Below, one piece after another: positions 22,612-23,028 of a stretch of 64,000 bases of DNA; within the stretch, counting starts at the first letter, position 1, and every line of letters begins with the position of its first letter. The DNA is from a phage. The stretch lies in assembly GCA_019338205.1 (NCBI GenBank), contig GCA_019338205.1_4761.1; one strand, given 5' to 3'. Position numbers and translations under genes: made by a program. The notes under the pieces were generated by a model that was given only the letters and a program-made list of their open reading frames with translations, ran no database searches and was not told where the DNA came from.

Positions 22612-23028
22612 ATGGAATTTAAAGCAATTCAAATCATGAAAGGTGAGCATAAAGGTACTATTATCGGTGGACATTTCGCGCCTATGATTCTGGTATCCGA
22701 ACCGAAAGCCCTGATCGGCGCTAAAGTAATTGTTAGTAAAACTTTCGCAGAAGACCATGTGATCACCGCAGAAGACGTCGATTCGCTGGCACTGCACACA
22801 ACTAGCTTCCGTCCTGTTATTGTAGATAATGGTGCTCCGGTTGTCGAAGGTGGTCAGCATTTGAATGTTAACGTATTGTTACGAGAAATGTTACTTGACG
22901 CTGTTGAACATCCTGAGAAGTACCCGCAGCTTACAATTCGCGTTTCTGGTTACGCAGTGCGCTTCAATAGTCTGACTCCAGACCAGCAGCGTGACGTTAT
23001 CGCGCGTACCTTTACCGAATCTCTCTAA
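22612..23028 (+). CDS. grcA: autonomous glycyl radical cofactor GrcA/YfiD-like (T4 Y06I-like)
   Basis: C-terminal [12 protein letters not shown]...[39 protein letters not shown] near-identical to E. coli GrcA; glycyl radical motif RVSGY. Confidence 0.9.

Follow-up and report, generated by a model that had tools for sequence, protein, structure and literature searches.

A Krischvirus orthologue of T4 Vs.6 with a GrcA-like glycyl radical domain: an old phage gene, mosaic in its 3' half among related phages

We analyzed a phage DNA stretch of 64,000 nucleotides (contig GCA_019338205.1_4761.1 of the GenBank assembly GCA_019338205.1, hereafter called the window) and found that the ORF at positions 22612–23028 on the plus strand (ATG to TAA, 138 aa) is a real gene, as a first-pass annotation of this DNA had observed, and that it is the positional orthologue of the bacteriophage T4 gene vs.6, whose product is known as Y06I. 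The gene is old and already annotated in phages, and to this extent the finding itself is already known. Its identity, its motif and domain architecture, its orthology, its age and the purifying selection that acts on it are established in our analysis, while its functional reading as a GrcA/Y06I-type spare part for the pyruvate formate-lyase (PFL) of the host is well supported by homology to a characterized orthologue; recent capture from a host and proximity to the nrd genes, as proposed earlier, are not supported. Beyond textbook knowledge go only the endonuclease-linked mosaicism of this gene in related phages and the host-derived 3' end of T4 vs.6, both of which lie largely outside the window.

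The gene is preceded by a Shine-Dalgarno sequence, read directly from the DNA (GAGGTG, positions 22602–22607, plus strand, 4 nt before the ATG), and it is followed on the same strand by an intrinsic terminator (23038–23072) that ends the vs.6 transcription unit and comprises a 10-bp stem, a 5-nt loop and a T-run (RNA fold of -17.9 kcal/mol, z = -4.6 against shuffled sequences). No T4 late promoter (TATAAATA) was found within 4.8 kb of vs.6, and a sigma-70 scan around the gene returned weak internal matches only, so that the promoter was left without assignment.

The encoded protein comprises an N-terminal half with a phage-type signature (aa 1–76, positions 22612–22839, plus strand) and a glycyl radical domain (aa 77–138, 22840–23025, plus strand), which is the counterpart of residues 698–759 of PflB. 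Gly_radical (PF01228) is the sole Pfam domain identified (residues 78–119, E-value 1.5e-16, 61.3 bits against a cutoff of 22.2). The top match among PDB sequences is E. coli YfiD/GrcA (6OWR, E-value 5.8e-33, aligned from residue 37 to the end), and PflB is matched as well (1H16, E-value 5.8e-27, over PflB 698–759); these matches uphold the original assignment to the GrcA/YfiD-type autonomous glycyl radical domain proteins. In a four-way alignment, residues 77–138 are identical to E. coli GrcA at 56 of 62 positions, in agreement with the C-terminal near-identity reported before, to T4 Vs.6 at 54 of 62, and to PflB 698–759 at 50 of 62 (81%). Six residues of the domain differ from GrcA, and from HPEK to the C-terminus there is a single difference (D124, which is E in GrcA); the stretch REMLLDA is common to the window protein and PflB but not to GrcA. 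The glycyl radical motif, on whose presence the first-pass annotation had made its reading depend, is retained on realignment as RVSGYAVRF (residues 110–118, positions 22939–22965, plus strand), with G113 as the predicted radical glycine (codon GGT, 22948–22950, plus strand). This column is invariant in 65 homologues, and the loop around it is exactly of the PFL type (RVSGYAV).

Like E. coli GrcA, the window protein is a small stand-alone glycyl radical domain protein; GrcA is under host regulation, whereas the window gene belongs to a phage early-region operon. In contrast to PflB, it possesses neither the catalytic barrel of the glycyl radical enzymes nor the residues Cys418 and Cys419, and therefore it cannot be an enzyme alone. 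The C-terminus of PflB (698–759 in 1H16/2PFL) is the piece that the spare part would replace. The AlphaFold2 (AF2) model has an overall pLDDT of 81.6 and a pTM of 0.48, with residues 91–130 mostly at 88–94. A Foldseek search with this model identified the NMR structure of YfiD (6OWR) as the best match (E-value 6e-7; TM-score 0.74 when normalized to the target; 60 aligned columns with 92% identity). The C-terminal domain of PFL (1CM5/2PFL) is also matched, as is expected for the fold of the PFL radical domain.

In the N-terminal 76 residues, identity falls to about 27% with E. coli GrcA and 37% with T4 Vs.6, and this half is about 11 aa longer than that of GrcA, while identity within the Krischvirus homologues amounts to 87–100%. 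This half has a signature, K-A-[IY]-Q-[IL]-x-x-G-x-H-K-G-T-I ... A-[RK]-[VI]-I-V-S-K-T-F-x-E-D, that recurs in the homologues of T4-like phages, Krischvirus and jumbo phages and is confined to homologues of phage origin. Bacterial GrcAs (those named by their source) lack it and begin instead with M-I-x-G-I-Q-I-T-K ... N-S-F-W-L-L-D. The PHROG 1209 profile, which stands for the phage Vs.6/Y06I clade, matches residues 3–138 with an E-value of 3.4e-51. The NCBIfam GrcA equivalog model TIGR04365, on the other hand, gives 133.8 bits against a trusted cutoff of 170, a shortfall that we attribute to the divergent N-terminal half; by these profile scores the window protein is, strictly speaking, a member of a GrcA-like phage subfamily and not a GrcA equivalog. 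A Foldseek search against the PDB aligned the C-terminal domain only and returned no fold for the N-terminal half. The AF2 model shows moderately confident beta-strands and short helices in aa 1–76 (pLDDT 82–90 in most blocks, with a dip at residues 21–30), which call for caution in view of the low pTM of 0.48, and the first ~50 nt of the gene are 87% identical to the homologue in the Yersinia jumbo phage fHe-Yen9-04. The equivalent N-terminal region of E. coli YfiD has been described as disordered. It is important for efficient installation of the radical (PMC13450708).

The window is a Krischvirus (RB49-like Straboviridae) genome. At the nucleotide level its vs.6 is 95–99.8% identical to vs.6 of 42 Escherichia and Shigella Krischvirus records, the highest value being that for Shigella phage Sf20 and Escherichia phage FL37, and a 100% identical protein of phage vB_EcoM_Skers bears the annotation "putative autonomous glycyl radical cofactor". 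The enterobacterial host suggested earlier finds confirmation in 59 near-identical Escherichia/Shigella Krischvirus records, and it is better supported by these relatives of the phage than by the protein identity from which it had been deduced. The gene order in the annotated relatives kaaroe and JSE is M15 endolysin, vs.8, a 41-aa ORF, vs.6, the nrdC.11 nucleotidyltransferase gene, regB, vs.1, vs, tk.4 and tk. The T4 block is the same (vs.8, vs.7, vs.6 ... regB, vs.1, vs, tk.4, tk), and comparison of the kaaroe, JSE and T4 regions reveals that the position in the Straboviridae early region (vs.8 and vs.6, then regB, vs and tk) has been kept. Apart from this position, T4 Vs.6 (Y06I, NP_049730, annotated as GrcA) shares with the window protein the membership of PHROG 1209, the RVSGYAVRF motif and the phage-type N-terminal signature (KAxQIxxGxHKGTI, ARxIVSKTF), but with 120 aa against 138 aa it is shorter and lacks ~16 residues of the N-terminal half. 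Y06I had been cited as a known analogue; the shared synteny makes it the positional orthologue, not just an analogue. We also note that nrdC.11, located 3' of vs.6 (window 23115–23813), matches the Pfam family RlaP (E-value 2.3e-14), the "RNA repair pathway DNA polymerase beta family" of nucleotidyltransferases, and that in T4 nrdC.11 lies ~7 kb from vs.6 and adjoins the HNH endonuclease gene mobD. Homologues of vs.6 are present in 1,581 phage records, which range over Straboviridae of many genera, T5-like Demerecviridae (whose version is shorter), jumbo phages including Serratia phage BF, and Aeromonas and Vibrio phages; Nolan et al. found the gene in all six of the T4-like genomes they compared (PMC1524935).

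The first-pass annotation had taken the high identity to GrcA as a sign of recent capture from the host, which is not borne out at the DNA level. Nucleotide identity of the window gene to both E. coli grcA and pflB is 73.1% across the 62 conserved codons, with proportions of synonymous differences (pS) of 0.79 for grcA and 0.70 for pflB, i.e. saturated, and dN values of 0.11–0.15 (Nei-Gojobori counts). A blastn search of 5,426 complete E. coli genomes gave a maximum of 75.7% identity over 185 nt, and the best match was pflB rather than grcA; together with these counts, it rules out recent capture from E. coli. We also considered capture from another bacterium. When the 62-aa domain was used as query against the species representatives of GTDB, a sample with one genome per species and not an exhaustive survey, nucleotide identity reached at most 76.3% (Edwardsiella hoshinae) with a median of 70% among the best 80 of at least 588 candidate bacterial loci. 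Since nucleotide identity is 73% and pS is saturated, the identity of the protein reflects purifying selection, which a dN of 0.10–0.15 with saturated synonymous sites indicates to be strong. We interpret the conserved sequence as that of a domain selected to fit the host proteins PflA and PflB, so that its high identity is a mark of constraint and not of recency.

These data bear directly on the possibility that the gene is a recently acquired host moron, i.e. a fresh copy of E. coli grcA, or of the 3' end of pflB, that still evolves neutrally in the phage. The C-terminal 62 residues are indeed 90% identical to GrcA at the amino acid level, at 45.7% the gene is slightly richer in GC than the window as a whole (40.1% on average), and the 3' end of T4 vs.6 does derive from a recent conversion by the host gene (181/185 nt). 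A fresh copy should, however, be nearly identical at synonymous sites and in its DNA, as the 3' end of the T4 gene (98%), which serves here as the positive control, is, and the window gene is not: this follows from the identities and pS values given above for the two E. coli genes and from the maximum identities in the 5,426 E. coli genomes and among the 80 bacterial species loci. Moreover, the signature of the N-terminal half is specific to phages, T4 has the gene in the corresponding position, and all six genomes of the published T4-like comparison contain it. For the bacteria searched the moron reading is already contradicted, and we regard it as highly improbable.

In T4 itself, the last 185 nt of vs.6 (NC_000866, 63557–63741, minus strand) are identical to E. 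coli K-12 grcA at 181 positions. The match begins at the codons for IEGGQH and ends with the stop codon; no similarity is detectable directly upstream or downstream, and over the 62 codons dS is 0.08. The GC content of this segment is 47%, compared to 34% in the rest of T4 vs.6, 35% in the T4 locus and 49% in the same part of grcA. To judge from these sequences, the radical domain of T4 looks like the product of a recent host-to-phage gene conversion. With 98% identity to grcA in T4 against 73% in the window, the scenario of recent capture is true of T4 and not of the phage studied here.

Having established the orthology, we consider it very probable, by analogy, that the window protein is the Krischvirus counterpart of T4 Vs.6 in function too and serves as a spare part for host PFL cleaved by oxygen. 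In E. coli or Shigella cells infected under anaerobic or microaerobic conditions, host PflA, the radical-SAM PFL-activating enzyme, would take a hydrogen from G113 in the RVSGYAV loop. Where oxygen has cleaved host PflB at its radical residue Gly734, the phage radical domain (aa 77–138) would dock in place of the lost C-terminal piece, and the restored PFL activity would allow production of acetyl-CoA/ATP and formate to continue. Formate from the rescued enzyme would also feed, indirectly, the dNTP supply through the phage NrdD/NrdG, formate being the reductant of most characterized class III reductases (PMC4493059, which cites Mulliez et al. 1995 on this point); this link to NrdD is a plausible downstream benefit. 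The precedent comes from Knappe's group: the PFL activase installs a glycyl radical in E. coli YfiD and T4 Y06I, which in turn restore PFL cleaved by oxygen at Gly734 (Wagner et al. 2001, BBRC 285:456, as cited in PMC8683613 and PMC13450708). Repair of host PFL, as suggested for this gene at the outset, has thereby experimental backing for the orthologue Y06I (according to PMC8683613, citing Wagner et al. 2001). In the account given there, activation by PflA and restoration of PFL are reported for these two proteins only, and for the window protein we infer the same activity by analogy. Several features count against this assignment: the score of the GrcA equivalog model below its cutoff, the low identity to GrcA and the greater length of the N-terminal half, whose counterpart in YfiD aids radical installation, and the six residues by which the radical domain departs from GrcA. 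Against the link between formate and NrdD speaks the distance of 17–21 kb between the genes in the window.

The activase would presumably be that of the host. A tblastn search with E. coli PflA against phages, in which 24 records in all reach 80% coverage, gave no full-length homologue attributable to a phage-encoded PflA among the best 25 matches listed, where the full-length matches are short or host-DNA-like records. The matches in Straboviridae are presumably partial ones of the NrdG type; if the PflA-like matches in T4-like phages are indeed NrdG, then NrdG is the sole glycyl radical activase encoded by these phages, and the activation of Vs.6 should fall to the host enzyme.

Two other functions have to be weighed against the repair of PFL. 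One is that the protein serves the phage's own anaerobic ribonucleotide reductase, being activated by the phage NrdG and acting as a spare radical domain or a radical reservoir for NrdD. The window does encode, on the same strand as vs.6, both the class III reductase NrdD (40485–42347, plus strand, Pfam NRDD 9.4e-176) and its radical-SAM activase NrdG (43746–44255, plus strand, Pfam Fer4_12 2.4e-43), and the radical glycine loop of NrdD (residues 592–596) reads RVSGY, the same pentapeptide as in the vs.6 protein and PflB; from this shared loop, NrdG may cross-activate Vs.6. A role in nucleotide metabolism was speculated upon by Nolan et al. 2006 (PMC1524935), and in Serratia phage BF the homologue resides between nrdD and nrdG. 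Beyond RVSGY, however, no similarity of the vs.6 protein to the NrdD of the window is detectable (BLASTP E-value 1.2), its radical domain is 81–90% identical to the C-termini of PflB (81%) and GrcA, and the zinc-ribbon match found in the radical domain of NrdD is absent from it; the protection of NrdD that the first-pass annotation had offered as an alternative to that of PFL therefore finds little in the sequence beyond the pentapeptide. Nor is vs.6 located "near" nrdD/nrdG, as had been stated: the two genes are 17,457 and 20,718 nt downstream, respectively, with dozens of small ORFs in between, and in a T5-like phage the homologue is found in the tRNA region, far from the nrd genes. As the T4 orthologue in addition works with PflA and PFL (as described in PMC8683613), we regard service to NrdD as improbable. 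Adjacency to nrd genes was rejected as a general rule, being seen in Serratia phage BF but neither in the T5-like phage nor in the window. Phage BF (357 kb) is an observation of its own: its GrcA-like gp137 is encoded between nrdD (gp133) and nrdG (gp139) within NC_041917 70556–74727, so that it is linked far more closely to the genes of the anaerobic reductase than its counterparts in T4-like phages are.

The other function would be manipulation instead of repair: the protein would either titrate host PflA as a decoy substrate or divert the activity of intact PflB/TdcE by partnering with it, and in this way reprogram host fermentation. The exact recognition loop of PflA is present, the phage-specific N-terminal half is conserved without an assigned function, and GrcA acts on full-length inactive PFL in vivo, judging by the title of a paper (J Bacteriol 2022, 204:e00070-22) in the reference list of PMC13450708. 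We found, on the other hand, no evidence of inhibition by any GrcA-type protein; the T4 orthologue restores activity, and a docking domain so strongly conserved over its entire length is in keeping with functional complementation. Manipulation of this kind appears to us distinctly improbable, and repair of oxygen-cleaved PFL remains our preferred reading.

Comparison of the Krischvirus homologues with the window reveals that the two halves of the protein evolve differently: the N-terminal 76 residues are 87–100% identical, while identity in the radical domain is 63–100% and varies in blocks. Bacterial GrcAs show the reverse pattern of variation. In the phages JK32, phiS, G37-3, pEJ01 and JSE the DNA is 97–100% identical to the window through nt ~190–240 of the gene, from there to the gene end mostly 40–80% identical with a few near-identical blocks, and in nrdC.11 about 92–96% identical again. 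Each of these five phages has a gene for a NUMOD4-HNH homing endonuclease between vs.6 and nrdC.11, with an insertion point that corresponds to window positions 23075–23093 or 23085–23102. The window therefore contains an empty insertion site (23075–23102, plus strand) where 14 related Krischvirus records carry the NUMOD4-HNH gene; in the window and in kaaroe the site is an 86-nt spacer. All 14 records carry a divergent allele of the vs.6 3' part. The JK32-type endonuclease is found in nine records, which are exactly the nine with the JK32-type radical domain, and the JSE-type endonuclease in JSE (two records), 011D4, Whisky and phiS (81% identity), whereas neither endonuclease list contains any of the 40 listed records whose allele is of the window type (at least 95% identity). 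A tblastn search for the donor of the variant radical domains gave matches of at most 80% beyond the nine phages in which they occur. A second empty insertion site is present in the window at 21889–21913, between the M15 endolysin gene and vs.8; there JK32, phiS, JSE and G2248 have a ~576-nt gene for an HNH-AP2 endonuclease (Pfam HNH_3 + AP2), and pEJ01 is occupied as well, with ORFs of 447 and 129 nt.

Four phages without the NUMOD4-HNH gene, KFS-EC, FL15, G2248 and kvi, possess nested JSE-type tracts in vs.6. These cover nt ~249–420 of the gene in KFS-EC and FL15, ~249–300 in G2248 and ~249–283 in kvi, and hence share a left edge at nt ~249 and a minimum that corresponds to window 22860–22894 (plus strand). 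This shortest block replaced in the endonuclease-less kvi and G2248 is a candidate for the target of the homing endonuclease or for a resistance patch; the window has the unreplaced allele at these positions. The mosaic pattern of vs.6 is as would be expected, by analogy with known systems, from intronless homing with co-conversion of flanking DNA and the spread of resistant alleles, and we put this forward as our hypothesis. Intronless homing with co-conversion has been published for T4 SegF, SegG and MobE, with SegG as a precedent for co-conversion that starts at a cleavage site distant from the gene (described in PMC2993671 with reference to its refs 53–55). As in these T4 systems, a free-standing endonuclease gene is located in the Krischvirus relatives beside a conserved gene of which the adjacent segment has been replaced, in nested tracts that differ in length; the relatives differ in that the HNH cleavage site is a candidate one. 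Unlike the SegF-, SegG- and MobE-type loci, the window has no endonuclease gene but only the empty site and the unreplaced allele; on this hypothesis it would carry the endonuclease-free, presumably sensitive allele. We found no description of an endonuclease-linked vs.6 locus in the literature searched.

Taken more broadly, we propose that the radical-domain half of vs.6 may be a hot spot of gene conversion driven by double-strand breaks in T4-like phages. In Krischvirus, the NUMOD4-HNH endonuclease would target the 3' half of vs.6 (with 22860–22894 as the candidate site) and spread recoded, cleavage-resistant alleles, and in T4 the corresponding region would have been repaired from the host chromosome. 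We hold this proposal to be evenly balanced between right and wrong. If it is true, a phage auxiliary metabolic gene is kept matched to, or is shuffled against, its host and phage homologues by break repair.

The vs.6 gene of the window by itself adds little, as it is a further copy of a characterized phage auxiliary gene, the role of which is to help keep host fermentation running when oxygen intrudes and probably also to help supply formate to the anaerobic ribonucleotide reductase of the phage. It does illustrate that high protein identity between phage and host is here not evidence of recent transfer, with the T4 orthologue as a built-in contrast, in which a recent host-to-phage conversion did happen. 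If confirmed, the link between the endonuclease and the radical domain would be a new and easily testable case of intronless homing on a metabolic accessory gene, and the Krischvirus alleles would provide a natural panel of radical-domain variants for the study of compatibility between the spare part and PFL.
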